Assembly (NCBI RefSeq): GCF_036365525.1
Contig: NC_090399.1
Coordinates: 23,260,529-23,324,528, forward strand
DNA length: 64,000 bases
Source of the DNA: Heterodontus francisci
Lineage: Eukaryota
Direction of reading: 5' to 3'
The position numbers and the translations under genes are program-made. Each line of letters begins with the position of its first letter. Position 1 is the stretch's first letter. Under the pieces are notes generated by a model. The model made no database searches. It worked only from the letters and a program-made list of their open reading frames with translations, and was not told the DNA's origin. Of this stretch, positions 1,749-61,410 are shown one piece after another.

Positions 1749-2426
1749 TTTTAATAACCATATAAATAACTGAAAATAAAGATTTCAGGAGGGAAGCAGA
1801 AACAAATAAATGCAAATGCTTACATCTTAAACAAATACTTATAATACACCATGGGAAGAAAGGGAAAAAATATACATGGAATAAAAGGGACAGTGGCAGC
1901 ATTGATATGAAGTTGGTTGAATGGTAGGAAACAATAGTAGTGAAAGGTTGTTTTTCAGCCTGGAGGAGGGTGTATAGTGGGGTTCCCCAGGGGTTGCTAT
2001 TAGGATCATTGCTTTTCTTAATATAGACCTAGACTTGGGTGTACAGGGCACAATTTCATAATTTGCAGATGACACAAAATTGGGAAGTATAGTGAACTGT
2101 GAGGAGGATAGTGATAGACTTCAAGACGACATAGACAGGCTGGTAGAATGGGCAGACACATGGCAAATGAAATTTAATGCAGAGAAGTGTGAAGTGATAC
2201 ATTTTGGTAGGAAGAATGAGGAGAGACAATATAAACTAAGGGGTACAATTCTAAAGGGGGTACAGGAGCAGAGGGGCCTGGAGGTTTATAGGCACAAATC
2301 ATTGAAGGTGGCAGGGCAGGTTGAGGAAGTGGTTTAAAAATCATATTTTTAGAATTAGAATTAGAATTAGAATATTACAGCGCAGTACAGGCCCTTCGGC
2401 CCTCGATGTTGCGCCGATCATCTGAC

Positions 2427-5318
2427 CTACACTATTCCATTTACATCCATATGTCTATCCAATGACCACTTAAATGCCCTTAAAGTTGGCGAGTCTACTA
2501 CTGTTGCAGGCAGGGCGTTCCACGCCCCTACTACTCTCTGCGTAAAGAAACTACCTCTGACATCTGTCCTATATCTTTCACCCCTCAACTTAAAGCTATG
2601 TCCCCTCGTGTTTGCCATCCTCATCCAAGGAAAAAGACTCTCACTATCCACCCTATCTAACCCTCTGATTATCTTGTATGTCTCTATTAAGTCACCTCTC
2701 CTCCTCCTTCTCTCTAACGAAAACAACCCCAAGTCCCTCAGCCTTTCCTCGTAAGACCTTCCTTCCATACCAGGCAACATCCTAGTAAATCTCCTCTGCA
2801 CCCTTTCCAAAGCTTCGACATCCTTCCTATAATGCGGTGACCAGAACTGCACGCAATACTCCAGGTGCGGCCTCACCAGAGTTTTGTACAGCTGCATCAT
2901 GACCCCGTGGCTCTGAAACTCGATCCCCCTACTAATAAAGGCTAACACACCATATGCCTTCTTAACAGCCCTATTAACCTGGGTAGCAACTTTCAGGGAT
3001 TTATGTACCTGGATACCAAGATCTCTCTGCTCATCTACACTACCAAGAATCTTCCCATTAGCCCAGTACTCTGCATTGCTGTTACTCCTTCCAAAGTGAA
3101 TCACCTCACACTTCTCCGCATTAAACTCCATTTGCCATCTCTCAGCCCAGCTCTGCAGCCTATCAATGTCCCTCTGTACCCTACAACACCCTTCGACACT
3201 ATCCACAACTCCACCGACCTTCGTGTCATCCGCAAATTTACTAACCCACCCTTCTACACCCTCATCCAGGTCGTTTATAAAAATGACAAACAGCAGTGGC
3301 CCCAAAACAGAACCTTGCGGTACACCACTAGTAACTAAACTCCAGGATGAACATTTGCCATCAACCACCACCCTCTGTCTTCTTTCAGCTAGCCAATTTC
3401 TGATCCAAAGCTCTAAATCACCTTCAACCCCATACTTGCGTATTTTCTGCAATAGCCTACCGTGGGGAACCTTATCAAACGCCTTACTGAAATCCATATA
3501 CACCACATCCACGGCTTTACCCTCATCCACCTGTTTGGTCACCTTCTCGAAAAACTCAATAAGGTTTGTGAGGCACGACCTACCTTTCACAAAACCGTGC
3601 TGACTATCGCAAATGAACTTATTCTTTTCAAGATGATTATAAATCCTGTCTCTTATAACCTTTTCCAACATTTTACCCACAACCGAAGTAAGGCTCACAG
3701 GTCTATAATTACCAGGGCTGTCTCTACTCCCCTTCTTGAACAAGGGGACAACATTTGCTATCCTCCAGTCCTCCGGCACTACTCCTGTCGACAATGACGA
3801 CTTAAAGATCAACAACAACGGCTCTGCAATCTCCTCCCTGGCTTCCCAGAGAATCCTAGGATAAATCCCATCTGGCCCAGGGGACTTATCTATTTTCACT
3901 CTTTCCAAAATTGCTAACACCTCCTCCTTGTGAATCTCAATCCCATCTAGCCTAGTAGGCTGTATCTCAGTAATCTCCTCGGCAACATTTTCTTTCTCTA
4001 CTGTAAATACTGACGAAAAATATTCATTTAACGCTTCCCCTATCTCCTCTGATTCCGCACACAACTTCCCACTACTATCCTTGATTGGCCCTGTTCTAAC
4101 TCTTATCATTCGTTTATTCCTGATATACCTATAGAAAGCCTTAGGGTTTTCTTTGATCCTATCCGCCAATGACTTCTCGTGTCCTCTCCTTGCTCTTCTT
4201 AGCCCTCCCTTTAGATCCTTCCTGGCTAGCTTGTAACTCTCAAGCGCCCTAACTGAGCCTTCACGTCTCATCCTAACATAAGCCGCCCTCTTCCTCTTGA
4301 CAAGCGCTTCAACTTCTTGAGTAAACCACGGCTCCCTTGCTCGACAACTTCCTCCCTGCCTGACAGGTACATACTTATCAAGGACACGCATTAGCTGCTC
4401 CTTGAATAAGCTCCACATTTCGTTTGTGCCCATCCCCTGCAGTTTCCTTCCCCATCCTACACATCCTAAATCTTGCCTAATCGCGTCATAATTTCCTTTC
4501 CCCCAGCTATAATTCTTGCCCTGCGGTATATACCTGTCCCTGCCCATCGCTAAGGTAAACCTAACCGAATTGTGATCACTATCGCCAAAGTGCTCACCTA
4601 CATCTAAATCAAACACCTGGCCGGGTTCATTACCCAGTACCAAATCCAATGTGGCATCGCCCCTGGTTGGCCTGTCCACATACTGTGTCAGAAAACCCTC
4701 CTGCACACACTGGACAAAAACAGACCCATCTAAAGTACTCGAACTATAGTATTTCCAGTCAATATTTGGAAAGTTAAAGTCCCCCATAACCACTACCCTG
4801 TTACTCTCGCTCCTGTCGAGAATCATCTTCACTATCCTTTCCTCTACATCTCTGGAACTATTCGGAGGTCTATAGAAAACTCCCAACAGGGTGACCTCTC
4901 CTCTCCTGTTTCTAACCTCGGCCCAGACTACCTCAGTAGACGAGTCCTCAAACGTCCTTTCTGCCGCTGTAATACTTTCCTTGATTAACAATGCCACACC
5001 CCCCCCTCTTTTACCCTCTTCTCTGTTCTTTCTGAAACATCTAAATCCCAGAACCTGCAACATCCATTCCTGCCCCTGCTCTACCCATGTCTCCGAAATG
5101 GCCACAACATCAGGATCCCAGGTACCAACCCATGCTGCAAGCTCACCCACCTTATTCCGGATGCTCCTGGCGTTGAAGTAGACACACTTTAAACCAAGTT
5201 CTTGCTTGCCAGTGCCCTCTTGCGTCCCTGTAACCTTATCCCCTACCTCACTACTCTCAACAGCCTGGACACTGGCACTGCAATTTAGGTTCCCATTCCC
5301 CTGCTGATTTAGTTTAAA
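2427..5318 (-). CDS. CR1 ORF2: APE endonuclease + reverse transcriptase (frame open from 5318, no AUG before the first EN motifs)
   Basis: LKCVYFNARS, ISETW, GDFNFP, SDHN, YRPVSLTS, QHGF, DFSKAFD, GVPQGSVLGP, FADD; I translated 5151-5318 in frame and found no stop and no ATG. Confidence 0.93.
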   Translation of the reverse strand, partial: FKLNQQGNGNLNCSASVQAVESSEVGDKVTGTQEGTGKQELGLKCVYFNARSIRNKVGELAAWVGTWDPDVVAISETWVEQGQEWMLQVLGFRCFRKNREEGKRGGGVALLIKESITAAERTFEDSSTEVVWAEVRNRRGEVTLLGVFYRPPNSSRDVEERIVKMILDRSESNRVVVMGDFNFPNIDWKYYSSSTLDGSVFVQCVQEGFLTQYVDRPTRGDATLDLVLGNEPGQVFDLDVGEHFGDSDHNSVRFTLAMGRDRYIPQGKNYSWGKGNYDAIRQDLGCVGWGRKLQGMGTNEMWSLFKEQLMRVLDKYVPVRQGGSCRAREPWFTQEVEALVKRKRAAYVRMRREGSVRALESYKLARKDLKGGLRRARRGHEKSLADRIKENPKAFYRYIRNKRMIRVRTGPIKDSSGKLCAESEEIGEALNEYFSSVFTVEKENVAEEITEIQPTRLDGIEIHKEEVLAILERVKIDKSPGPDGIYPRILWEAREEIAEPLLLIFKSSLSTGVVPEDWRIANVVPLFKKGSRDSPGNYRPVSLTSVVGKMLEKVIRDRIYNHLEKNKFICDSQHGFVKGRSCLTNLIEFFEKVTKQVDEGKAVDVVYMDFSKAFDKVPHGRLLQKIRKYGVEGDLELWIRNWLAERRQRVVVDGKCSSWSLVTSGVPQGSVLGPLLFVIFINDLDEGVEGWVSKFADDTKVGGVVDSVEGCCRVQRDIDRLQSWAERWQMEFNAEKCEVIHFGRSNSNAEYWANGKILGSVDEQRDLGIQVHKSLKVATQVNRAVKKAYGVLAFISRGIEFQSHGVMMQLYKTLVRPHLEYCVQFWSPHYRKDVEALERVQRRFTRMLPGMEGRSYEERLRDLGLFSLERRRRRGDLIETYKIIRGLDRVDSESLFPWMRMANTRGHSFKLRGERYRTDVRGSFFTQRVVGAWNALPATVVDSPTLRAFKWSLDRHMDVNGIV

Positions 5319-6244
5319 CCCCCCCGAAGAGCACTAACAAATCTCCCCCCCAGGATATTGGTACCCCTCTGGTTCAGGTGAAGACCATCCTGTTTGTAGA
5401 GGTCCCACCTACCCCAGAAAGAGCCCCAATTATCCAGGAAACCAAAACCCTCCCTCCTACACCATCCCTGCAGCCACGTGTTCAACTCCTCTCTCTCCCT
5501 ATTCCTCTCTTCGCTAGCACGTGGCACAGGCAACAACCCAGAGATAACAACTCTGGTTGTTCTCGCTCTAAGCTTCCACCCTAGCTCCCTGAATTTCTGC
5601 CTTAAATCCCCATCTCTCTTCCTACCTATGTCGTTGGTGCCTATGTGGACCACGACTTGGGGGTGCTCCCCCTCCCCCTTAAGGATCCCAAAAACACGAT
5701 CGGAGACATCACGTACCCTGGCACCTGGGAGGCAACACACCAACCGTGAGTCTCTCTCGTTCCCACAGAACCTCCTATCTGTTCCCCTAACTATGGAGTC
5801 CCCAATGACTAATGCTCTGCTCCTCTTCCCTTTTCCCTTCTGAGCAACAGGGACAGACTCTGTGCCAGAGACCTGCACCCCATTGCTTACCCCTGGTAAG
5901 TCGTCCCCCCCAACAGTATCCAAAACGGTATACCTGTTGTTGAGGGAAACGGCCACAGGGGATCCCTGCACTGCCTGCTGGTTCCCTTTCCTTCCCCTGA
6001 CGGTAACCCATCTACCTACTTCTTTTACCTGAGGTGTGACTGCCTCCCTATAACTCCTGTCAATAATCCCCTCCGCCTCCCGAATGATCCGAAGTTCATC
6101 CAGCTCCAGCTCCAGTTCCCTAACGCGGTCTGCGAGGAGCTGGAGTTGGGTGCACTTCCCGCAGATGCAGTCAGCAGGGACACTCTTGGCGACCCCTACC
6201 TCCCACATTCTGCAGGAGGAACATACAACTGCCTTTACCTCCAT
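5309..6244 (-). CDS. CR1 ORF1p: zinc finger/leucine zipper + SGNH (GDSL-type) esterase
   Basis: CxxC...CxKC, LADRVRELELEL zipper, VIGDSIVRG, HIGTND, DGLHLN; ATG at 6244 (GTG at 6250). Confidence 0.92.
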   Translation of the reverse strand: MEVKAVVCSSCRMWEVGVAKSVPADCICGKCTQLQLLADRVRELELELDELRIIREAEGIIDRSYREAVTPQVKEVGRWVTVRGRKGNQQAVQGSPVAVSLNNRYTVLDTVGGDDLPGVSNGVQVSGTESVPVAQKGKGKRSRALVIGDSIVRGTDRRFCGNERDSRLVCCLPGARVRDVSDRVFGILKGEGEHPQVVVHIGTNDIGRKRDGDLRQKFRELGWKLRARTTRVVISGLLPVPRASEERNREREELNTWLQGWCRREGFGFLDNWGSFWGRWDLYKQDGLHLNQRGTNILGGRFVSALRGGLN

Positions 6245-6443
6245 TCCCACTATTCTAGATTCCCAATAAATCTACTGAAAAACCAAACGAAAAAAAAAGT
6301 CAAAACTTGTTCGCTTAGCAATCCGACGGACTGAAGTTTTAAATAAAAAGCTTACCTTATCAACACCCTAGAGTCCTTTTTTTTTGGTTAGAGGAGGAGG
6401 GTGGGTGGGAGACACTACACGTGTAGTGTCTCGGGTACTGCCA

Positions 6444-7450
6444 CTGCCCAAATAAATAGTTTTCCCCTACCCAGCAGTCCCCGGTCCTCCGAAACAAAAA
6501 AGGGATTAACTTGTAACTTACTGAAATTGACCGCTCAGCTGAAAGTCCGCTCCGCACCCCGTTCTATCAAGGCTGCTCCTCGCAAAAGACAAAGATTTTA
6601 AAACTGCCCAAATAAATAGTTTTCCCCTACCCAGCAGTCCCCGGTCCTCCGAAACAAAAAAGGGATTAACTTGTAACTTACTGAAATTGACCGCTCAGCT
6701 GAAAGTCCGCTCCGCACCCCGTTCTATCAAGGCTGCTCCTCGCAAAAGACAAAGATTTTAAAACTGCCCAAATAAATAGTTTTCCCCTACCCAGCAGTCC
6801 CCGGTCCTCCGAAACAAAAAAGGGATTAACTTGTAACTTACTGAAATTGACCGCTCAGCTGAAAGTCCGCTCCGCACCCCGTTCTATCAAGGCTGCTCCT
6901 CGCAAAAGACAAAGATTTTAAAACTGCCCAAATAAATAGTTTTCCCCTACCCAGCAGTCCCCGGTCCTCCGAAACAAAAAAGGGATTAACTTGTAATTTA
7001 CTGAAATTGACCGCTCAGCTGAAAATCCGCTCCGCACCCCGTTCTATCAAGGCTGCTCCTCGCAAAAGACAAAGATTTTAAAACTGCCCAAATAAATAGT
7101 TTTCCCCTACCCAGCAGTCCCCGGTCCTCCGAAACAAAAAAGGGATTAACTTTTAATTTACTGAAATTGACCGCTCAGCTGAAAGTCCGCTCCGCACCCC
7201 GTTCTATCAAGGCTGCTCCTCGCAAAAGACAAAGATTTTAAAACTGCCCAAATAAATAGTTTTCCCCTACCCAGCAGTCCCCGGTCCTCCGAAACAAAAA
7301 AGGGATTAACTTGTAATTTACTGAAATTGACCGCTCAGCTGAAAGTCCGCTCCGCACCCCGTTCTATCAAGGCTGCTCCTCGCAAAAGACAAAGATTTTA
7401 AAACTGCCCAAATAAATAGTTTTCCCCTACCCAGCAGTCCCCGGTCCTCC
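6444..7450 (-). repeat. 160-bp tandem monomer array forming the CR1 5' end (~6.3 copies)
   Basis: CTGCCCAAATAAATAG recurs at 6444, 6604, 6764, 6924, 7084, 7244, 7404 with very few substitutions. Confidence 0.95.
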
Positions 7451-12874: not shown

Positions 12875-13148
12875 CACCCTCTTTCTTCCCCCCCCCCACC
12901 TTTCTTTCCTCCTCCTCTCCCATTCTCTCCTATCCTATCCCTGTTCCCTACCTCTCTCCCTTCTCCCCTGTCCCTCTCCCCCCCTACCTCTCCATTCATT
13001 CTCTTTATACTTATTCTTCCTCTCCTACCCTCCTCTTTCCCCTTGCTATATTTCTTCCCTCCTCTGTCTACCTCTCCTTTAACTCTCCTACCTCTCTTTC
13101 TCCTCTCCCCTCTATTCCTCCTACCCAACCCCATTTCTCCCCTTCTCA
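12875..13148. repeat. Polypyrimidine/polypurine low-complexity tract in TRIM-A intron 1
   Basis: Almost exclusively C/T on the + strand. Confidence 0.8.
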
Positions 13149-13184
13149 ATATCTACCTGTGCCAGTCGGGTAATGATCCATTAC

Positions 13185-13595
13185 CTTGTATATCTGGGCA
13201 GCCTCTTTTATAGCAACAACATGGTGAGTTTGATGCTCTGAGCTCCAGCAGTCCACACAGATCGCTTGCTGCTCTTCCATACAGAACATCTTCAGCTTCT
13301 CCTTGTGTTCCTCACAGTAAATCTCCTCCACCCGCTGGGTCACCTTCTCCTGCAGCAGTCTGAGCTTCTCCACAACATTGCCCAGGGTCCGAGCCGACCT
13401 GACGTTCCTCTGAGTGAAGAGCTGCCGACACTGGGGGCAGGAAACATCTCCCGGGACCTTCTCCCAGCTCTGAGAGATGCAGCTTCTGCAGAAATGATGC
13501 TCACATTCCAGAGACACCGGGTCGGTGAACATCTCCAGGCAGATGGCACAGGTTAGTTCATGTGTGAGATCCCCCATCTCTTTCCCTGATGCCAT
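13185..13595 (-). CDS. TRIM-A coding exon 1 (RING + B-box2), TRIM39/TRIM69/A33-like E3 ligase
   Basis: MASG..ELTCAICLEMFTDPVSLECEHHFCRSCI..CPQC; CEEH..FC..ICVDC..EHQTH; ends YK|GTAATG donor; 411 bp. Confidence 0.93.
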
Positions 13596-14159
13596 TCCAC
13601 AGCTTGTTGTTCATCTGCCTTTTAGTTTTAACTTTCAGTTCTGCTTCTGAAAAACATTCCCACCCTTTCTGAAATATCACATGGTTCAGAATCAAGAAAG
13701 TTCGTGTTTTTCCCCTGAGTCATCAACAAACATAATTAGACCCAATTGGCAACAAATCAAAGTTCAGACAGGAAATACATTCCAAAAAGTGCTTTTCTAA
13801 AGGGTCAAGGAAATAAGAATGGAAAATTCATTGAAACAAGAGATGGATTAAGAAGAGGTGATAATGGTTCACCTCCTTTCAGATGCTCTTTAAAACATAT
13901 CTCGGACCAAGATTTTGGCAATCTGTCCTAATATCTCCTTAAATGGCTCAGTGCCAAATACAGTTTGTTAACTCTGCTGAGAAGCATCTTGAATGTTCTC
14001 CTCACTTAAAGCTGTTGTTTTTGTTGTTGGAGAATGTCGAAGAGAAAATGGACATGGGTTCAGGTGGTTGAGATCTAAATCCGTTAAACTCCTTTTGCCT
14101 TGTATCATGATCCCTTTTGCTATTTAATCACTCCCGCCCTCCACTCTAACACGGACCAT

Positions 14160-19742: not shown

Positions 19743-19902
19743 TTTGCGATTAAAAGTTCCACTTAATCTGAAATGAAGGTGACTGGGAAGGTCATAGTGA
19801 GGATGTGTATTAATTTTGATTTTTTTTTATATATATATAACTGTTTTTAAGGTGGATATTTGAGAAGGATTGGAAGGATATTCTTTCCAAGTTGGGTTGA
19901 GA

Positions 19903-20316
19903 ATGGCAACTGGTCAGCATGTCAACCGACTCTTTGGTGAAGTGACCTGCTCCATCTGCCTGGATTTCTTCCAGGAGCCAGTGGCACTGGAGTGCGAACA
20001 CAACTTCTGCCGGCTCTGCATCTCCCGAAGTTGGGAGCAGGGAGGCACCTTCTACTCCTGCCCCGAGTGCCGGGAGGAGTTCCGTGAGAAGAAGCTGAAG
20101 CCCAACCGCATGCTGGCCAACATCGTGGAGGGGGTAAGGGAGCTGAAACTGGAGCCTCACCAGGGCCACCCTGCCTTCTATTGCCAGCGGCACGAGGAAC
20201 GCCGCAAGCTCTTCTGCCAGGACTGCCAGGAGGCCATCTGTGTGGTGTGCTCGTGTGCCAGGGAGCATCGGGGCCACAGCTTCATCCCCGTTGAGGAGGC
20301 TGCTGTTCTCTACAAG
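19903..20316 (+). CDS. TRIM-B exon 1 (RING + B-box2)
   Basis: MATG..EVTCSICLDFFQEPVALECEHNFCRLCI..CPEC; CQRH..FCQD..ICVVC..EHRGH; YK|GTGAGA donor; 414 bp. Confidence 0.95.
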
Positions 20317-20319
20317 GTG

Positions 20320-23300
20320 AGAGGTGTGGATGCACAGGGGCAGGGAGAGGGGTGTGGGACATAAAGGGGGCAGAGGGAGGGGTGTGGGACATAAAGTGGG
20401 CAGGGAGAGGGGTGCGGGACATAAAGGGGGCAGGGAGAGGCGTGAGGGACATGCAGGGGGCAGGGAGAGGGGTGTGGGACATGCAGGGGGCAGGGAGAGG
20501 GGGGAGATAACATACAGGGGGCAGGGAGAGGGGTGCGGGACATAAAGGAGGCAGGGAGAGGGGTGTGGGACATAAAGGAGGCAGGGAGAGGGGGGAGATA
20601 ACATACAGGGGGCAGGGAGAGGGGTGCAGGACATAAAGGAGGCAGGGAGAGGGGTGTGGGACATAAAGGAGGCAGGGAGAGGGGTGTGGGACATAAAGGA
20701 GGCAGGGAGAGGGGTGTGGGACATAAAGGAGGCAGGGAGAGGGGTGCGGGACATAAAGGGGGCAGGGAGAGGGGTGAGGGACATGCAGGGGGCAGGGAGA
20801 GGGGTGTGGGACATGCAGGGGGCAGGGAGAGGGGGGAGATAACATACAGGGGGCAGGGAGAGGGGTGCGGGACATAAAGGAGGCAGGGAGAGGGGTGCGG
20901 GACATAAAGGAGGCAGGGAGAGGGGTGTGGGACATAAAGGAGGCAGGGAGAGGGGGGAGATAACATACAGGGGGCAGGGAGAGGGGTGCAGGACATAAAG
21001 GAGGCAGGGAGAGGGGTGTAGGACATAAAGGAGGCAGGGAGAGGTGTGTGGGACATAAAGGAGGCAGGGAGAGGGGGGAGATAACATACAGGGGGCAGGG
21101 AGAGGGGTGCAGGGCATAAAGGAGGCAGGGAGAGGGGTGTGGGACATAAAGGAGGCAGGGAGAGGGGTGTGGGACATAAAGGAGACAGGGAGAGGGGTGT
21201 GGGACATGCAGGGGGCAGAGGGAGGGGTGAGGGACATATAGGGGGCAGGGAGAGGGGTGTGGGACATGCAGGGGGCAGGGAGAGGTGCGGGACATACAGG
21301 GGGCAGGAAGAGGGGTGCAGGACATACAGGGGCAGGGAGAGGGGTGTGGGACATGCGGGGGGCAGAGGGAGGGGTGAGGGACTTGCAGGGGGCAGGGAGA
21401 GGGGTGTAGGACATGCGGGGGGCAGAGGGAGGGGTGAGGGGCATGCAGGGGGCAGGGAGAGGGGTGTGGGACATGCGGGGGCAGAGGGAGGGGTGAGGGA
21501 CATGCAGGGGGCAGGGAGAGGGGTGTAGGACATGCGGGGGGCAGAGGGAGGGGTGAGGGGCATGCAGGGGGCAGGGAGAGGGGTGTGGGACATGCGGGGG
21601 CAGAGGGAGGGGTGAGGGACATGCAGGGGGCAGGGAGAGGGGTATGGGACATGCGGGGGGCAGAGGGAGGGGTGAGGGACATGCAGGGGGCAGGGAGAGG
21701 GGTGCGGGACATTAAGGGGGCAGGGAGAGGGGTGCGGGATATACAGGGAGCAGGGAGAGGGGTGCGGGACATTAAGGGGGCAGGGAGAGGGGTGCGGGAC
21801 GTACAGGGGGCAGGATTGGGGTGCGGGACGTACAGGGAGCAGGGAGAGGGGTGCAGGACGTACAGGGGGCAGGATTGGGGTGCGGGACGTACAGGGACCA
21901 GGATTGGGGTGCGGGACGTACAGGAGGCAGGGAGCGGGGAGCGGGACGTACAGGGGGCAGGAGTGGGGTGTGGGACCTGCGGGGGGCAGGGAGAGGGGTG
22001 TTGAATGTACAGGAGGCAGGGAGAGGGGTGCGGGACATGCAGGGGGCAGGGAGTGCGGTGTGGGATATACAGGGGGCAGGGAGAGGCCTGTGGGACATAG
22101 AGGGTGCAGGGAGAGTGGTGTGGGACGTACAGGGGGCAGGGAGAGGGGTGTTTGATATACAGGGGGCAGGGAGAGTGGTGCAGGACATGCGGGGGGGCAG
22201 GAGTGGGGTCCAGGACGTACAGGGGGCAGGAGTTGTGTGCGGGGCGTACAGGGAGCAGGTAGAGAGATGTGACATATGCAGGGCTAGGGAGTGGGGTGTG
22301 AGATACATATGGGGCAGGGAGAGGGGTCTGGGATGTGCAGGGGGCAGGGAGAGCGGTGTGTGACGTACATGGGGCAGGGGGAGGGGACTGGGACAAACAG
22401 GGTGTAGGGACAGGGGTCTGGGACAAACAGGGTGTAGGGACAGGGGTCTGGGACAAACAGGGTGTAGGGACAGGGGTGCGGGACATACAGGGTGCAGGGA
22501 GGGGGTTGCTGGAGTGACGGGGCAGGGAGAGGGATGTTGAATGTACAGGAGGCAGGGAGAGGGGTGTGAGATATATAGGGGGCAGGGAGGGGGTTGCGGG
22601 AGTGACGGGGCAGGGAGAGGGATGTTGAATGTACAGGAGGCAGGGAGAGGGGTGCGGGACATGCAGGGGGCAGGGAGTGCAGTGCGGGACATGCAGGGGG
22701 CAGGGAGAGGGGTGTGAGATATAGACGGGGCAGGGAGTGGGGTGCGGGACATGCAGGAGGCAGGGAGAGGGGTGCGGGACATGCAAGGGGCAGGGAGAGG
22801 GGTGTGAGATATAGACGGGGCAGGGAGTGGGGTGCGGGACATGCAGGGGGCAGGGAGAGGGGTGCGGGACATGCAGGGGGCAGGGAGAGGGGTGCGGGAC
22901 ATGCAGGGGGCAGGGAGAGGGGAGCGGGACATGCAAGGGGCAGGGAGAGGGGTGTGAGATATAGACGGGGCAGGGAGTGGGGTGCGGGACATGCAGGGGG
23001 CAGGGAGAGGGGTGTGGGACATGCAGGGGGCAGGGAGAGGGGGGAGATAACATACAGGGGGCAGGGAGAGGGGTGCGGGACATAACGGAGGCAGGGAGAG
23101 GGGTGCGGGACATAAAGGAGGCAGGGAGAGGGGTGTGGGACATAAAGGAGGCAGGGAGAGGGGGGAGATAACATACAGGGGGCAGGGAGAAGGGTGCAGG
23201 ACATAAAGGAGGCAGGGAGAGGGGTGTAGGACATAAAGGAGGCAGGGAGAGGTGTGTGGGACATAAAGGAGGCAGGGAGAGGGGGGAGATAACATACAGA

Positions 23301-26300
23301 GGGCAGGGAGAGGGGTGCAGGGCATAAAGGAGGCAGGGAGAGGGGTGTGGGACATAAAGGAGGCAGGGAGAGGGGTGTGGGACATAAAGGAGGCAGGGAG
23401 AGGGGTGTGGGACATAAAGGAGACAGGGAGAGGGGTGTGGGACATGCAGGGGGCAGAGGGAGGGGTGAGGGACATATAGGGGGCAGGGAGAGGGGTGTGG
23501 GACATGCAGGGGCAGACGGAGGGGTGAGGGACATGCAGGGGGCAGAGGGAGGGGTGAGGGACATATAGGGGGCAGGGAGAGGGGTGTGGGACATGCAGGG
23601 GGCAGAGGGAGGGGTGAGGGACATGCAGGGGGCAGGGAGAGGGGTGTGGGACATGCAGGGGGCAGAGGGAGGGGTGAGGGACATATAGGGGGCAGGGAGA
23701 GGGGTGTGGGACATTCAGGGGGCAGAGGGAGGGGTGAGGGACATATAGGGGGCAGGGAGAGGGGTGTGGGACATGCAGGGGGCAGAGGGAGGGGTGAGGG
23801 ACATATCGGGGGCAGGGAGAGGGGTGTGGGACATGCAGGGGGCAGGGAGAGGTGCGGGACATACAGGGGGCAGGAAGAGGGGTGTGGGACATGCGGGGGG
23901 CAGAGGGAGGGGTGAGGGGCATGCAGGGGGCAGGGAGAGGGGTGTGGGACATGCGGGGGCAGAGGGAGGGGTGAGGGACATGCAGGGGGCAGGGAGAGGG
24001 GTGTAGGACATGCGGGGGGCAGAGGGAGGGGTGAGGGGCATGCAGGGGGCAGGGAGAGGGGTGTGGGACATGCGGGGGCAGAGGGAGGGGTGAGGGACAT
24101 GCAGGGGGCAGGGAGAGGGGTATGGGACATGCGGGGGGCAGAGGGAGGGGTGAGGGACATGCAGGGGGCAGGGAGAGGGGTGCGGGACATTAAGGGGGCA
24201 GGGAGAGGGGTGCGGGACGTACAGGGGGCAGGATTGGGGTGCGGGACGTACAGGGGGCAGGATTGGGGTGCGGGACGTACAGGGAGCAGGGAGAGGGGTG
24301 CGGGACATTAAGGGGGCAGGGAGAGGGGTGCGGGACGTACAGGGGGCAGGATTGGGGTGCGGGACGTACAGGGGGCAGGATTGGGGTGCGGGACGTACAG
24401 GGGGCAGGATTGGGGTGCGGGACGTACAGGGGGCAGGATTGGGGTGCGGGACGTACAGGGGGCAGGATTGGGGTGCGGGACGTACAGGGGGCAGGATTGG
24501 GGTGCGGGACGTACAGGGACCAGGATTGGGGTGCGGGACGTACAGGAGGCAGGGAGCGGGGAGCGGGACGTACAGGGGGCAGGAGTGGGGTGTGGGACCT
24601 GCGGGGGGCAGGGAGAGGGGTGTTGAATGTACAGGAGGCAGGGAGAGGGGTGCGGGACATGCAGGGGGCAGGGAGTGCGGTGTGGGCTATACAGGGGGCA
24701 GGGAGAGGCCTGTGGGACATAGAGGGTGCAGGGAGAGTGGTGTGGGACGTACAGGGGGCAGGGAGAGGGGTGTTTGATATACAGGGGGCAGGGAGAGTGG
24801 TGCAGGACATGCGGGGGGGCAGGAGTGGGGTCCAGGACGTACAGGGGGCAGGAGTTGTGTGCGGGGCGTACAGGGAGCAGGTAGAGAGATGTGACATATG
24901 CAGGGCTAGGGAGTGGGGTGTGAGATACATATGGGGCAGGGAGAGGGGTCTGGGATGTGCAGGGGGCAGGGAGAGCGGTGTGTGACGTACATGGGGCAGG
25001 GGGAGGGGACTGGGACAAACAGGGTGTAGGGACAGGGGTCTGGGACAAACAGGGTGTAGGGACAGGGGTCTGGGACAAACAGGGTGTAGGGACAGGGGTG
25101 CGGGACATACAGGGTGCAGGGAGGGGGTTGCTGGAGTGACGGGGCAGGGAGAGGGATGTTGAATGTACAGGAGGCAGGGAGAGGGGTGTGAGATATATAG
25201 GGGGCAGGGAGGGGGTTGCGGGAGTGACGGGGCAGGGAGAGGGATGTTGAATGTACAGGAGGCAGGGAGAGGGGTGCGGGACATGCAGGGGGCAGGGAGT
25301 GCAGTGCGGGACATGCAGGGGGCAGGGAGAGGGGTGTGAGATATAGACGGGGCAGGGAGTGGGGTGCGGGACATGCAGGAGGCAGGGAGAGGGGTGCGGG
25401 ACATGCAAGGGGCAGGGAGAGGGGTGTGAGATATAGACGGGGCAGGGAGTGGGGTGCGGGACATGCAGGGGGCAGGGAGAGGGGTGCGGGACATGCAGGG
25501 GGCAGGGAGAGGGGTGCGGGACATGCAGGGGGCAGGGAGAGGGGAGCGGGACATGCAAGGGGCAGGGAGAGGGGTGTGAGATATAGACGGGGCAGGGAGT
25601 GGGGTGCGGGACATGCAGGGGGCAGGGAGAGGGGTGTGGGACATGCAGGGGGCAGGGAGAGGGGGGAGATAACATACAGGGGGCAGGGAGAGGGGTGCGG
25701 GACATAAAGGAGGCAGGGAGAGGGGTGCGGGACATAAAGGAGGCAGGGAGAGGGGTGTGGGACATAAAGGAGGCAGGGAGAGGGGGGAGATAACATACAG
25801 GGGGCAGGGAGAAGGGTGCAGGACATAAAGGAGGCAGGGAGAGGGGTGTAGGACATAAAGGAGGCAGGGAGAGGTGTGTGGGACATAAAGGAGGCAGGGA
25901 GAGGGGGGAGATAACATACAGAGGGCAGGGAGAGGGGTGCAGGGCATAAAGGAGGCAGGGAGAGGGGTGTGGGACATAAAGGAGGCAGGGAGAGGGGTGT
26001 GGGACATAAAGGAGGCAGGGAGAGGGGTGTGGGACATAAAGGAGGCAGGGAGAGGGGTGCGGGACATGCAAGGGGCAGGGAGAGGGGTGTGAGATATAGA
26101 CGGGGCAGGGAGTGGGGTGCGGGACATGCAGGGGGCAGGGAGAGGGGTGCGGGACATGCAGGGGGCAGGGAGAGGGGAGCGGGACATGCAAGGGGCAGGG
26201 AGAGGGGTGTGAGATATAGACGGGGCAGGGAGTGGGGTGCGGGACATGCAGGGGGCAGGGAGAGGGGTGTGGGACATGCAGGGAGCAGGGAGTGGGGTGT

Positions 26301-26968
26301 GGGACATGCAGGGGGCAGGGAGTGGGGTGCGGGACATGCAAGGGGCAGGGAGAGGGGTGTGAGATATAGACGGGGCAGGGAGTGGGGTGTGAGATATAGA
26401 CGGGGCATGGAGTGGGGTGCGGTACATGCAGGGGGCAGGGAGAGGGGTGTGAGATATACAGGGGGCTGGTAAAGGGGTGTGGGACGTACAGGAGGCAGGG
26501 AGTGGGGTGCGGGATATGCAAGGGGCAGGGAGAGGGGTGTGAGATATACAGGGGGCTGGTAAAGGGGTGTGGGACGTACAGGAGGCAGGGAGTGGGGTGC
26601 GGGATATGCAAGGGGCAGGGAGAGGGGTGTGAGATATACAGGGGGCTGGTAAAGGGGTGTGGGACGTACAGGAGGCAGGGTGTGGGGTGCGGGATATACA
26701 GGGGGCAGGGAGAGGGGTGTGCGATACATAGGGGGCAGGGAGAGGGGTGTTTGATATGCAGGGGGCCGGGAGAGGGGTGTGGGATGTCCAGGGAGCAGGT
26801 GTGGGGTGCGGGACGTCCAGGGAGCAGGTGTGGGGTGCGGGACGTACAGGGGCAGGAGTGGGGTGCGGGACATACAGGGGCAGGAGTGGGATGCGGGACG
26901 TACAGGGGCAGGAGTGGGATGCGGGACGTACAGGGGCAGGAGTTGGATGCGGGACGTATAGGGGGCAG
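20320..26968 (+). repeat. ~30-bp G-rich minisatellite (GGGGGCAGGGAGAGGGGTGTGGGACATGCA), about 220 units
   Basis: Direct tandem repetition starting right after the TRIM-B exon 1 donor. Confidence 0.97.
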
Positions 26969-27233
26969 AACAAGAACCAAGAACAAAGAACAGTACAGCA
27001 CAGGAACAGGCCATTCAGCCCTCCAAGCCTGCGCCGATCTTGATGCCTGCCAAAACTAAAACCTTCTTCACTTCTGGGGCCCATATCCCTCTATTCCCTT
27101 CCTATTCATATATTTGTCAAGATGTCTCTTAAACGTCACTATCGTATCTGCTTCCACCACCTCCCCTGGCAGCAAGTTCCAGGCACTCACCACCCTCTGT
27201 GTAAATAACTTACCTCGCACATCCCCTCTAAAC
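26969..27233 (-). mobile_element. CR1 3' end (partner of 32371-33274)
   Basis: YFTQRVVSAW-like motif and (TTCTTG)n tail abutting the minisatellite. Confidence 0.8.
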
Positions 27234-28446
27234 TTTTGTATTCATACATCCTCTCACGTTGCCTAATTAATTTCTTAAGTTGCCAAATTAAGTAGGTCAA
27301 AAATAACACCATGATACCCAAAACCACTATCAGGACATGGGAGATAATTCTAAACCAGGGGTGTATCTGCACGTCTGATCCCCAGTTCCATAAGTCCTCC
27401 TGTCAGGTAGAATCATTTATCTCGTCAATCTCATCTTGTAGCATCTTCGACTGTTGTTCCAGATTGTAGTACACTACAGCAATGACTTCTCGCTGCTGTC
27501 TCTCTTTACCCAAGCGTGTGGGCAATGGCTGTATAGTGTATTCATATTCCCGGAGGTAATTTATCAAATCCTCCCTAATACTTTCTGTCACAGTTATTGT
27601 TTCTGTCTTTTGTTTATGTATCTCTACCAACTCCATCTTCCCTACTCGGGTTGGTATTAGTGGGTTGAACCAAAATGTACTATTGCTCACCGGACAAGTC
27701 CGTTTATGTCCATACTGGTACTCCTTCGCTGTGGTGGTTAAGCAATATCTCCCTTTTCCCATATAGGCCACTTGGGTTAGCCCTGACACTGCTTTCCTAG
27801 TTTCCATGGTGCAATTTGCAGTGGCATTAAATCCACATTTTGATTCTGCCATTTTATATATGAGGACATATGACCACATGGTTTTCCAGACTACACTCAG
27901 ACAATGTTGTTCCAATTACCTCTTTTCCAATTTCCACAACATTTCCATAACATAGGGTAATATATCATCGTATTTTATGTAATCTTTTCCCCTTATCACC
28001 CCTATATTTTCTACTTCATGTAATTGCATCCCTAACTTATCTCTCAGAATTACAGGTATTCCCAACACTACTCCAATACTCATAGATCCTGTATTTACAC
28101 ATACCTGACCTTTCCATACCTTAAGTTTTCTGATTTGGCACTTGGTAATTTTATCATTCGTGTGACTAGTTAAGTATTCCAACTGGGTGTCATTGATCCA
28201 AACTGGCACCTGTCCTGCATCAATTTGCCTCAAATTTTCCTTTGTTTGTTCTAACATCCACGGACCATGTGTACTACAAACACTTTCATTATTTGAAATG
28301 ATATCATTAATAGTATGAGCATGACCTTCTGGTACTCTCATCAGTCCTGTAATTAGTTCAGTTGCTCTGCATGTAACAAATCACATTTTCTTCCATTCCC
28401 GGTATCTCTTTGCATACCAGGTGGTGTTTATTTTGGAGTCTGTCAT
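27234..28446 (-). pseudogene. Envelope glycoprotein: leader plus C-terminal part (disrupted)
   Basis: ORFs 27916-28341, 27403-27915, 27187-27372; Cys-rich ectodomain with N-glycan sequons, HR2-like LEQQSKMLQDEIDEIN, Trp-rich membrane-proximal region, TM IISHVLIVVLGIMVLFLTYLIW. Confidence 0.75.
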
Positions 28447-50390: not shown

Positions 50391-50856
50391 GTACGTGATC
50401 AGGGTTTGCAGGGTTTGAGCTGTAACTGAATCGGCTACGCAGCGGTTATAGTGGCCTGTGCTCGGTTGGCCCCTGTTTCAGAGGGTTGTGGGTTCAAGTC
50501 ACTCCAGAGACAAAATCTGGGATGGCATTGCAGTGCAGTACTGAGGGAGTGCTGCATTGTTGGAGCTGCTGTCTTTCGGATGAGGCGTTAAACTGAGGCC
50601 CCGCCTGCCCTTCCATGTGACCTCATGCCTGTATTTTAAAGAAGAGCAGAGAGTTGTACCCAGTGTCCTGTCCAGTATTCATCCCTTAATCATGACTAAA
50701 AAAGCAGAATATCTGGTCATTATCACACTGCTGTTTACAGGAGTTTGCTGTGTAAATATTGGCTGGTGAGTTTCCCAGTGTCATACATATTAAGGGAGTG
50801 AGCTCTGTAGCAATGAATGGACAGTCTGCATCTCTAATAGAATGTGTGTCTTCTAG

Positions 50857-51401
50857 CCAAGGAGTTTCTGAAACTGGACCCAAAGACAGCACACCCTAGA
50901 CTCATCCTGTCTGAGGACCTCGTCAGTGTGATTGATGGCGACAAACGTCGGGAGTGCTCAGCCATGCCCCATCGCTTCAACTACTGGCTCTGCGTTCTGG
51001 CCAGCAGCAGCTTCCTGTCGGGGCAACACTACTGGGACGTGGAGCTGGGCAGCAACACGGCGTGCGTCATCGGTGTGGCCAGCGGATCTGCCGACCGGCT
51101 AACAACCAGACAGCTGACGCCACAGGACGGCTACTGGGTAATCGAGCTGCTCAACGGGAACCTGGTCAACATCAACACACCCGGTGCCAGGATCCTCCCT
51201 CTCCGTCGCAAACCTCGTTCCATCCGTGTCTACCTGAATTACGAGGGGGGGCAGGTGTCCTTTTATGACGCCGATGACCTGTGTCCTATTTACACCCTGC
51301 GGGATAAGTTCAAAGAGAAGCTGTATCCCCTCTTCAACCCTCACAACAAAAAGGAAGGGAATTCCGAGCCACTGAGGCTGTGCAATCCGATGGGATGCTA
51401 A
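50857..51401 (+). CDS. TRIM-B exon 6 (PRY/SPRY, B30.2); spliced CDS 1428 bp = 475 aa
   Basis: LKLDPKTAHPRLILSED, HYWDVEL, GYWVI, RVYLNYEGGQVSFYD, KLYPLFNP, TAA. Confidence 0.95.
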
Positions 51402-57679: not shown

Positions 57680-58745
57680 TTTTCCTCCTTTTCCTTTGGC
57701 CTCCTTGTCCCGAGAAACAATGGGTAAGCACCTGGAGGTGGTCAGTGGTTTGTGAAGCAGCGCCTGGAGTGGCTATAAAGGCCAATTCTAGAGTGACAGG
57801 CTCTCCCCTTGCACTTCTGTCTTTTTTCCTGCTAACTGCCAAGTCTCTTCAACTCGCCACAATTTGGCCCCGCCTTTATGGCTGCACGCCAGCTCTGGCG
57901 ATCGCTGGCAACTGACTCCCAAGACTTGTGATCAATGTCACAGGACTTTATGTCGCGCTTGCAGACGTCTTTAAAGTGGAGACATGGACGGCCGGTGGGT
58001 CTGATACCAGTGACAAGCTCACTGTGCAATGTGTCCTTGGGGATCCTGCCATCTTCCATGCGGCTCACATGGCCAAGCCATCTCAAGCGCCACTGGCTCA
58101 GTAGGGTGTATATGCTGGGAATGTTGGCCGCCTCGAGGACTTCTGTGTTGGAGATACGGTCCTGCCACCTGATGCCAAGGATTCTCCGGAGGCAGCGAAG
58201 ATGGAATGAATTGAGATGTCGCTCTTGGCTGACGTACGTTGTCCAGGCCTCGCTGCCGTAGAGCAAGGTACGGAGGACACCGGTTTGATACACTCGGACT
58301 TTTGTGTTCCGTGTCAGTGTGCCATTTTCCCACACTCTCTTGGCCAGTCTGGACATAGCAGTGGAAGCCTTTCCCATGTGCTTATTGATTTCTGCATCGA
58401 GAGGCAGGTTACTGGCGATAGTTGAGCCTAGGTAGGTGAACTCTTAAATCACTTCCAGAGCGTGGTCGCCGATATTGATGGATGGAGCATTTCTGACATC
58501 CTACCCATGGTGTTCGTTTTCTTGAGGCTGATGGTTAGGCCAAATTCATTGCAGGCAGCCGCAATTCTGTCAATGAGTTTCTGCTGACACTCTTCTGTGT
58601 GAGATGTTAATGCAGCATCGTCAGCAAAGAGGAGTTCCCTGAAGAGGACTTTCCATACTTTGGTCTTCGATCTTAGATGGGCAAGCTTGAACAACCTGCC
58701 ATCTGATCTTGTGTGGAGGAAAATTCCTTCTTCTGAAGACTTGAA
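57680..58745 (-). mobile_element. RTE-clade LINE 3' part
   Basis: LLFADDAAL, FGLTISLKKT, LLYGSEAWT, RLRWLGHVSRMEDGRIPKD. Confidence 0.88.
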
Positions 58746-59399
58746 GTTTATTCCACCTTGAGCATATCTAGCAGTCATTTCTCCTGATAGGGGAGAGCCA
58801 GTATAAGTTGTCTTTAAGTGTGAAGGGTGACTGTATACTTGGACGTACTTACAATTACCACAAGGGCTTCCTACTTCTCTGGTGAGTTTCACCACTACAT
58901 AGGACATTGGAGGAGTTTTCATTGCCCAGAAATGTGTTTCAATATGTGAATAATATTGGTCTGACAACAAAGGCCAAACAGCAGAGCTCTCCTGTGCCTT
59001 TAATGAAAAGTCAGTTTAAAGTTTAACCCAAATCCAAACCCAGCCAATGAAACTTCAAGTCTCTTTAAGGTGGTGTTCTTTTGAAAGGAGGGAATTCTGA
59101 TCAGCAAAAAGTGGAGGTACTTTGTCCAATCTCACTGCTGGCATCTGTAAATACCGTGAGGTCCTCCATGGGTTTGGTAAGCTATCAGTGGGCTTTCATC
59201 CTGCACTTCACTGTAACCACTGCCCCACCCTGGTATCAGCTCCTCAGAAATGAAGTTGGGGTGAGAGGGAAACCAAATCTGTGGAAGGGCTGAAGCACTG
59301 CCCTTGAGGCACCCATCCCAATTGGCTGCAAGCCAAACAGCTTTTGCCTCCATCCTGACTCAGGAAGGGCAAATAAAGCAGTTCGATGGAGTCCTGCTT

Positions 59400-61410
59400 T
59401 GACAGAGTGCTTAAGTCCAGAATTTGGTGAGTGTGGGAATTCGGTGCTGTGAGTGAAGAGGTACTGTTCTGGTCTTTTAAGAACAAGTGGTCTGAGAGGG
59501 TGTGCAGGGCACAGTGAGACCTGAGAGCTGAAGTCTAGAACCATTAATTAGGTAAGCAGGTCGAGGATTGGTGAGTTTCAAGGATTATTTTATTTTCTGT
59601 AAACTGTGGCAATCGTTTGAACCAGTACTGGGGAGATAGAAGCACAGTATTACATTTATAACTGAATTATTTAAGCTACTTAATATAATTAAAACTTATC
59701 ATTGAGTGATATTTCTAAATTTGAAACCATAGTTAAACAAAATAAAATAAACATGGCAGGGCAGATGACGTGTTGCAGCTGTAACATGTGGAAGCTGGTG
59801 GACACTAGTGTAATCCACTGCAACTATGTCTGCTGTGTCTGCAGTTTGAGGAACTTCGGCTCAGAGTTGATGAGCTGGAGTCTGAGCTCGGACACTGGTG
59901 CATCAGGGAGGCACAAAGTTACCTGGACCCTTTGTTTCAGGAGGCAGTCACACCCATTAGGTTAGATACTTTCGATTTGGTCTGTGGTCAGGGATAGGAA
60001 GGTGTGACTATGAGTGAGGAAGGTGTGACTATGAGTGAGGCAGGTATGGGGGAGTGAGGCTTAGCAATGGAGGAACCTCAACCCTTGAATTTGTCCAACA
60101 GGTTCGAGGTTCTTGCAGGCTGTGTGGGCAAGAGCGGGGACTACAAGGAGGATGAACAAACAGACCGCAGCACACTGGTGCAGGGATCCATTTAGGTGGG
60201 GGGAGTAAAATGGAGTCTAGTAGTAGTAGACAGTATAGTTAGGGGGATAGATACTGTTCTCTGTAGCCGAGAGCATGAGTCCCAAAGGCTGTGTTGCCTG
60301 CCCGGTGCCAGAGTTAAGGGCATTTCCGTGGGACTGGAGAGGAACTTGGAGTGGGAGGGAAAGGGAGTGCTGTTGTGGTTCCCATGGGTACTAATCACAT
60401 AGGTAAGACTAAGAAAAAGGTTCTGACAAGGGAGTATGAGTAGCTGGCGGTTAAATTAAAAAGCAGAAACACAAAGGTAATAATCTCTGGATGACTACCT
60501 GAACCATGAGCAAATTGGCGTAGGGTAAGTAAGATTAAAGAGTTTAATGCGTGCCTCAAAGATAGCTGAGGGAGAAATGGGTTTCAATTCATGGGACACT
60601 GGCACCAGCACTGGGGAAAGAGGGAGCTGTATTGTTGGGATGGCCTTTGCCTGAACTGTGCTGGGACGAGTGTCCTGGCGAATCATATAACACTAGGGCT
60701 ATGGAGAAGGCTTTAAACTGAATAGCGGTGAGAGGAAATTTAGAAAGGAAATGAGAAAGGACAAGTCAATAGTGAAGGGTAGTGATACGGAAGAAGAGGA
60801 ACAATTTTGTAATGAAATTAGAGAGAAATTCAAGAATTATGGAGTAGGTGGGGTGGGGGGCTTTAATTATCCAATATTGACTGGGATAATAGTAGTGTAA
60901 AAGACAGAGAGGGCAAGAGTTCCTAGAGTGTGTTCAGGAAAAGTTTCCACAGCAGTCTGTTTCCAGTCCGACGAGAGGGGAGGCAATGATGGACCTGATT
61001 TTGGGGAATGAGAATAGGCCAAACATTTAGGGGACAGTGATCATTGTATCATAAGGTTTAGGTTGGTTATGGAAAGGGGCAACGAACCATCTAGAGTAAG
61101 AATAATTAACTGGGGGAAAGCCACCTTCAGTTGGCAAGAATGGATCTGGGCTATATAAATTGGAATCAAAGGTTGGTAAGGAAAAGAATAGCTGAACAAT
61201 AGGCTACCTTCAAAGAAGAGATAGTTTAGGCACTGTCAAGGTATATTCCCTCGAAGGGGAAAGGTAGGGCAAGAAAATCCAGAGTTCCCTGACAAAAGAG
61301 TTAGAGATGAAGATGAAGAAAAAGTGTGCTGATGACAGATGTCAGGTAGATAATACAGTGGTGAATGTAGAAGGTTCAGAGGGGAAGTGAAAAGCAAATA
61401 AGAGAGGAGG
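59400..61410 (+). mobile_element. Degenerate CR1 5' part (ORF1 59753-60721 and start of ORF2)
   Basis: MAGQMTCCSCNMW, VVDSIVRG, CCLPGARV, ends ALN*; ORF2 FNYP and GDSDH remnants. Confidence 0.8.

Follow-up and report, generated by a model that had tools for sequence, protein, structure and literature searches.

A fixed slippery heptamer and a downstream G-rich motif suggest -1 frameshifting between ORF1 and ORF2 of esterase-type CR1 elements

Results

An intact CR1 element with an open -1 frame across its ORF junction

We analysed a 64,000-nucleotide (nt) stretch of Heterodontus francisci DNA (contig NC_090399.1, forward-strand positions 23,260,529 to 23,324,528; hereafter the window, whose first letter is position 1) and focused on a long interspersed nuclear element (LINE) of the CR1 type on its minus strand, in particular on how the second of its two open reading frames (ORFs) may be translated (Table 1). 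The esterase domain of ORF1 matched PF13472 (E 3e-15, above cutoff), while ORF2 matched PF03372 and PF00078, and its endonuclease was also aligned to L1 endonuclease structures. The 3' tail is a short tandem repeat rather than poly(A), which we take to be a CR1 trait. The element is a CR1 LINE with an esterase (type IV) ORF1, a name that rests on architecture (PMC4120745) and on general knowledge of the clade. The 160-bp monomers upstream of ORF1 are near-identical and resemble a tandem promoter array, and no target-site duplication was seen in the 50-nt flanks of the element. The family is young and abundant in the 6.0-Gb host genome: all 150 scored matches to the ORF1 C-terminus, out of 140,730 candidates, are 100% identical. 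Named ORF1 homologues come mostly from sharks and rays; one shark-type CR1 ORF1 (P0007) is deposited as bacterial (Pseudomonas), probably through contamination.

Table 1. Features of the CR1 element and its ORF junction (positions in the window)
Feature	Position	Strand	Basis or remark
CR1 LINE, intact	7450..2349	-	tandem array, ORF1, ORF2 and repeat tail
5' region, 6.3 tandem copies of a 160-bp unit	6443..7450	-	presumed 5' untranslated region/promoter array, from its position
ORF1, 311 amino acids	5309..6244	-	N-terminal Cys-rich/zipper-like part and SGNH/GDSL esterase; C-terminus ...GGLN*
Slippery heptamer T_TTA_AAC (X_XXY_YYZ)	5312..5318	-	ORF1 phase, within the ORF overlap; sequence and lineage conservation
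ORF1 stop TAA	5309..5311	-	directly 3' of the heptamer; sequence
G-rich motif, G4-AAT-G3 (typically G5-NN-G3)	5292..5301	-	+11..+20 after the heptamer; candidate stimulator, from conservation
Linker, 119 nt	5192..5311	-	open in the -1 frame only; no ATG in that frame
ORF2, encoding an apurinic/apyrimidinic endonuclease (APE) plus a reverse transcriptase (RT)	2427..5318	-	-1 frame; 961 amino acids from the codon after the heptamer
First in-frame ORF2 ATG, codon 91	5061..5063	-	lies past endonuclease motifs I and II
CR1-type 3' tail, 4.2 copies of a hexamer repeat	2349..2373	-	tandem-repeat detection
Heptamer with TGA where ORF1 ends in the second CR1 copy, which is decayed and from another family	60712..60721	+	sequence

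A first-pass annotation, made from the letters of the window, had pointed out that ORF1 ends in GGT TTA AAC TAA, that the -1 frame runs on without a stop through LKCVYFNARS and ISETW, and that the first ATG of ORF2 lies behind the endonuclease motifs. All three statements hold on the minus strand: the heptamer occupies 5318-5312, the -1 frame is open from 5333 to 2427 (968 codons, starting 5 codons before the heptamer), and the first ATG (5063) comes past motifs I and II. When aligned to L1 endonuclease structures, the ISETW Glu corresponds to that of IQET (chain position 43); since this first ATG comes after ISETW, an AUG-started ORF2 would lack the motif Glu.

TTTAAAC occurs 16 times in the window on both strands and is expected by chance in about 1% of 77-nt stretches, so that a single instance means little and the argument depends on where the heptamer lies, on its phase and on its conservation. 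Among close copies of the element the heptamer is kept in 26 of 30. The second CR1 in the window, which the same annotation had reported to keep the heptamer before a TGA, indeed does so (60712-60718, plus strand), but this copy is decayed, with frameshifts and stops in ORF1 and the start of the endonuclease missing, and therefore shows homology only.

Synonymous positions of the heptamer are fixed in divergent lineages

ORF1 ends were located in DNA by a hidden Markov model from which the last 8 columns had been excluded, and the 128 copies with a downstream endonuclease fell into 27 clusters at 85%. Thirteen clusters with at least 110 open ORF1 codons served as lineage representatives, selected by ORF1 intactness and not by the junction (14 decayed clusters were dropped), while a wider set of 23 junctions was taken from the 27 cluster representatives wherever a heptamer and stop could be recognised, a choice made on that pattern and not on downstream sequence. 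The 13 representatives share 21-78% (median 34%) amino acid identity in the ORF1 C-terminal region, and a tree of this region contains lineages from sharks, a clade of amniotes that includes a turtle protein, L061 (host unknown) and a clade with sea-cucumber proteins.

The terminal Leu codon of ORF1 is TTA in 13/13 representatives (background in these frames, 12.7% of Leu codons), and the terminal Asn codon is AAC in all of them, against a background of 43%. The base before TTA-AAC is T in 12/13, with six different amino acids encoded there (against 28% at four-fold sites), and a zero-frame stop follows the heptamer directly in every representative. Of 45 other conserved columns, only 1 keeps to a single codon. 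Protein constraint cannot account for the fixation of TTA and AAC. This was the check that the first-pass annotation had proposed for its frameshift, and its outcome favours that proposal.

Samples drawn in other ways gave a similar picture. An unbiased 1-Mb sample (100 x 10 kb) carried the exact heptamer at 20/28 ORF1 ends, where about 1% is expected by chance, and a heptamer with one mismatch at a further six, one of which is no true junction. On host contigs from metagenomes (57 loci), 13 CR1-type loci show the junction (12 TTTAAAC, 1 GTTAAAC), five stop at the contig edge, and the rest are distant esterases or lack the C-terminus. At the protein level, 60 of 120 ORF1 homologues among the matches listed end in LN; this terminus is found in 59/68 CR1-type homologues that reach the C-terminal motif versus 0/23 distant esterases, and it spans sharks, rays, chimaera, coelacanth, Xenopus, turtle and mormyrid.

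It could be argued that the heptamer is kept for a reason other than translation, a Leu-Asn function combined with an RNA or DNA element, and that ORF2 is made from a spliced or separately initiated RNA. Leu-Asn is nearly invariant in the protein and the heptamer site overlaps a short palindrome, yet the fixation of TTA and AAC is beyond the reach of protein constraint, the -1 frame stays open right up to the heptamer, and the linker, rich in purines, shows no conserved pyrimidine tract. Contigs from four sequencing runs, one of them on record as RNA, showed no splice-type ORF1-ORF2 joint among the seven joints listed, and single contigs bridge the junction colinearly. This is a weak check on splicing, as contigs show presence and not absence and three of the four runs were only guessed to be RNA, but taken together we judge such an origin of the heptamer very improbable.

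The -1 phase is kept across linkers of different length

ORF2 lies in the -1 phase in 11/13 representatives, with linkers of 80, 92, 116, 119, 125, 134, 149, 188 and 260 nt. The -1 frame is stop-free in 10 of these 11 linkers (the 260-nt linker has one stop), whereas the other frames hold 1-13 stops. Upstream of the heptamer the -1 frame overlaps ORF1 by 3-15 nt in 11/13 representatives, with no ATG inside the overlap. The description of ORF2 as AUG-less applies to this family and several others, there being no AUG before motif I in this family, in L203, in L061 and in those copies of the L207 and L152 families that are in phase, but it does not extend to the 8/11 in-phase representatives that have an AUG in the linker. 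The codon that overlaps the ORF1 stop is likewise not conserved (AUG in 1/13 representatives), and this family reads UAAAU there, without an overlapping AUG of the SART1 type. No near-cognate start is shared by the linkers: six candidates occur in this family, none of them common to other lineages.

A G-rich motif is conserved downstream of the heptamer

Earlier inspection had found no evident hairpin downstream of the heptamer, and folding bears this out for this element (z = +0.24 to +1.26 in three downstream windows). Across the 23 junctions, nested folding found no conserved stem-loop of the canonical kind 5-9 nt downstream either, and in most lineages the region has no pyrimidine partner strand for a pseudoknot. 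A long-range duplex between the 3' end of ORF1 and the linker scored z -3.55 here and -2.95 in one other representative, there with a different partner (mononucleotide shuffles), and was rejected as not conserved because it is absent in 11/13 representatives. In this family the duplex is a stem of about 15 bp (about 5345-5325 with 5225-5200, minus strand), specific to the family, that would enclose the slippery site.

What is conserved is a run of G. G stands at +11 in 23/23 junctions, at +12 to +15 in 19-22 and at +18 to +20 in 18-20, compared to a background of 32% further down the linker. The Gly codon within the motif is GGG in 16/19 junctions versus 31% in ORF2. [quoted passage not shown] G-quadruplexes can stimulate -1 shifts (PMC3919603); the ViennaRNA minimum free energy structure includes one in only 5/23 junctions.

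The first-pass annotation overlooked this motif and suggested that the adjacent stop codon may provide the pause. Frameshifting on the heptamer and stop alone, with the G-run merely coding for the start of a Gly-rich linker, is a sub-case of the frameshift explanation and its share is counted within it. It would fit the stop that follows the heptamer directly in all 13 representatives, as well as the G-x-G that the run encodes in ORF2 and the G-richness of the elements in general. However, third codon positions retain G even where the amino acid changes, GGG prevails among the Gly codons of the motif, and the stop codon is not yet in the A site during tandem slippage. We therefore find the stop alone a doubtful stimulator; judged by conservation, the G-rich motif is likely the better candidate.

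Frameshifting compared with termination-reinitiation

Several observations weigh against a frameshift. Lineage counts are not independent because the lineages are related (about 5-8 deep lineages). Two of the 13 representatives are out of phase, both from families in which other copies are often -1, and three older families show the -1 phase in just 5/12, 6/12 and 9/13 copies; we read the out-of-phase copies as 1-nt indels in dead copies, and the in-phase copies of these families translate as nearly clean linkers. A conserved nested RNA fold is absent across the 23 junctions (mean z -0.18; 2/23 below -2), codon bias (CAG 79%, AAG 59%) would account for part of the G at +11, and the spacer of the G-motif, at 7-10 nt, lies towards the upper limit of the canonical range of 5-9 nt. 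In the invertebrate clade, 8 of the 19 ORF1 proteins that reach the motif end in SN, as many as end in LN, and Ser breaks the perfect heptamer (protein data only). If the Ser codon is TCA, A_AAC would be kept and only the P-site part relaxed, which would speak against a strict heptamer.

The LINEs that have been tested, L1 and SART1, use termination-reinitiation (PMC5009743, PMC3708506), and the CR1 junction might do the same, with ribosomes restarting at a codon that overlaps the stop or at a linker AUG and with the heptamer and G-run acting as a reinitiation signal. The stop always adjoins the heptamer and the phase equals that of a UAAUG overlap (-1); UAAUG, the stop-start signal of SART1 (PMC3708506), occurs in 2/23 junctions and near-cognate codons in seven more, and reinitiation in L1 is AUG-independent (PMC5009743). 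The stop-overlapping codon is non-cognate in the remaining 14/23 junctions, this family included (AAU), and the in-frame linker AUGs of the 8/11 in-phase representatives do not align; by our estimate their frequency is about the chance level for 30-85 codons. Reinitiation also leaves unexplained why the seven conserved bases fit X_XXY_YYZ in phase and why the sole variant seen in DNA is itself a tolerated shift site (see below). We regard it as an unlikely route overall. In L233-L250 and L091 a UAAUG overlap directly follows the heptamer, and either route could serve.

On present evidence from sequence and conservation, the CR1 LINE quite probably makes its endonuclease and RT as an ORF1-ORF2 fusion through programmed -1 ribosomal frameshifting (PRF) on U_UUA_AAC. 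The proposal of the first-pass annotation is thereby borne out in part, by the synonymous fixation of the heptamer and the kept phase. Most ribosomes would stop at UAA or UAG and release the esterase ORF1 protein (ORF1p) as the main product. A minority would pause while the Leu- and Asn-tRNAs occupy UUA-AAC, let these re-pair on UUU-AAA, and then continue as ...GGLN-LNQQGNGNL..., giving a predicted fusion of 1272 amino acids. Most likely the G-rich motif, lying immediately outside the mRNA entry channel, would cause the pause through a bound protein or a G-quadruplex-like fold, with possible help from the adjacent stop. The outcome would be a fixed ratio as for Gag-Pol, the RT being carried into the ribonucleoprotein by its ORF1 part. 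More tentatively, and with somewhat less than even confidence, we propose that a structure-free -1 frameshift is shared by esterase CR1 LINEs of hosts ranging from sea cucumbers to sharks and birds, and that a factor on the G-rich motif triggers the fusion; candidates are a protein of the host that binds G-tracts, ORF1p or a quadruplex.

Relation to known elements and frameshift signals

The element shares its zinc finger/leucine zipper-like N-terminus and SGNH esterase in ORF1, its APE-RT ORF2 and its short tandem-repeat 3' tail with the vertebrate esterase-ORF1 CR1 elements (subgroup 7, ORF1 type IVB; PMC4120745). Its heptamer, its phase and the polymerase in the -1 frame recall the viral PRF sites U_UUA_AAC of the coronavirus infectious bronchitis virus and G_UUA_AAC of equine arteritis virus, U_UUA_AAC being among the most shift-prone heptamers in mammals (PMC5009743, PMC3542737). 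Unlike these viral sites, the CR1 site has no evident stem-loop or pseudoknot 5-9 nt downstream, its stop adjoins the heptamer, and its host is a non-LTR (long terminal repeat) retrotransposon. A closer likeness is the -2/-1 PRF of PRRSV nsp2, which is protein-stimulated and structure-free and depends on a C-rich motif bound by nsp1beta-PCBP with an efficient spacer of 9-11 nt (PMC4937337): both lack a stimulatory structure and carry a short conserved motif rich in a single base about 10 nt past the slippery site, whereas the CR1 motif is G-rich and has no known factor.

L1 and SART1 share with CR1 a bicistronic LINE RNA and low-level ORF2, but produce a separate ORF2 protein and no fusion (PMC5009743, PMC3708506). 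Frameshifting in LINEs nevertheless has a claimed precedent, since ORF2 of Dictyostelium TRE5-A and TRE3-A, which are also APE-type LINEs though of another clade and with a different ORF1, is stated in a review to need a -1 frameshift (PMC5911963). In the literature that we searched, which did not extend to the original CR1 papers, no description of a CR1 frameshift was found. The chicken and turtle CR1 papers of 1997-2001 may mention the overlap. The word "CR1" is absent from the examined part of a 2016 frameshifting review, as is "frameshift" from the accessible text of a 2024 CR1 paper and of the ORF1 survey PMC4120745.

That survey, in the text available, calls the esterase CR1 subgroups exclusively vertebrate. 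In contrast, a clade related to sea-cucumber proteins has the same ORF1 type, with one example of the junction in DNA. This example, L065 (3-3601), is a complete element with an esterase ORF1 and an APE-RT ORF2, and its place in the tree is with sea-cucumber ORF1 proteins at 100/98. Its junction reads G_TTA_AAC_TAG with an open -1 frame, the sole exception to T before TTA-AAC among the 13 representatives, and equine arteritis virus tolerates GUU as XXX (PMC3542737, PMC5009743). Other esterase-ORF1 elements with a CR1-like ORF2 (P0121-P0137) group with the sea-cucumber proteins as L065 does, their ORF1s ending in LN or SN. An own-genome search with P0019 gave no match at E 1e-150, a threshold that was too strict, and scans of GTDB and IMG/VR returned distant or unrelated esterases only.

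How LINEs translate ORF2 has been described as unclear (PMC3708506), and in birds the main LINE is CR1 (PMC11835228). If CR1 frameshifts as proposed, the RT of a dominant vertebrate LINE clade would be a fusion protein, ORF2 annotations that start at a linker AUG would be wrong, and the ratio of ORF1p to RT would be set as in retroviruses. Sensitivity to frameshift inhibitors such as Shiftless would be predicted, and CR1 retrotransposition assays could be guided accordingly. The signal, about 30 nt long, may define a new class of frameshift stimulator which, if structure-free, would be a G-rich mirror image of the C-rich arterivirus signal.

Other features of the window

Inspection of translations revealed TRIM-gene-like exons at 13146-13610, 19864-20364 and 50841-51401 (RING/B-box, SPRY-like). 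A long low-complexity tandem array at 19800-27090, whose minus strand holds very long Pro/Cys-rich open frames, is probably an intronic minisatellite. Two adjoining minus-strand frames (170 and 154 amino acids) at 27403-28380 belong to an unidentified decayed coding element, and the minus strand at 57832-59015 carries pieces of another LINE reverse transcriptase, which on inspection looks RTE-like.

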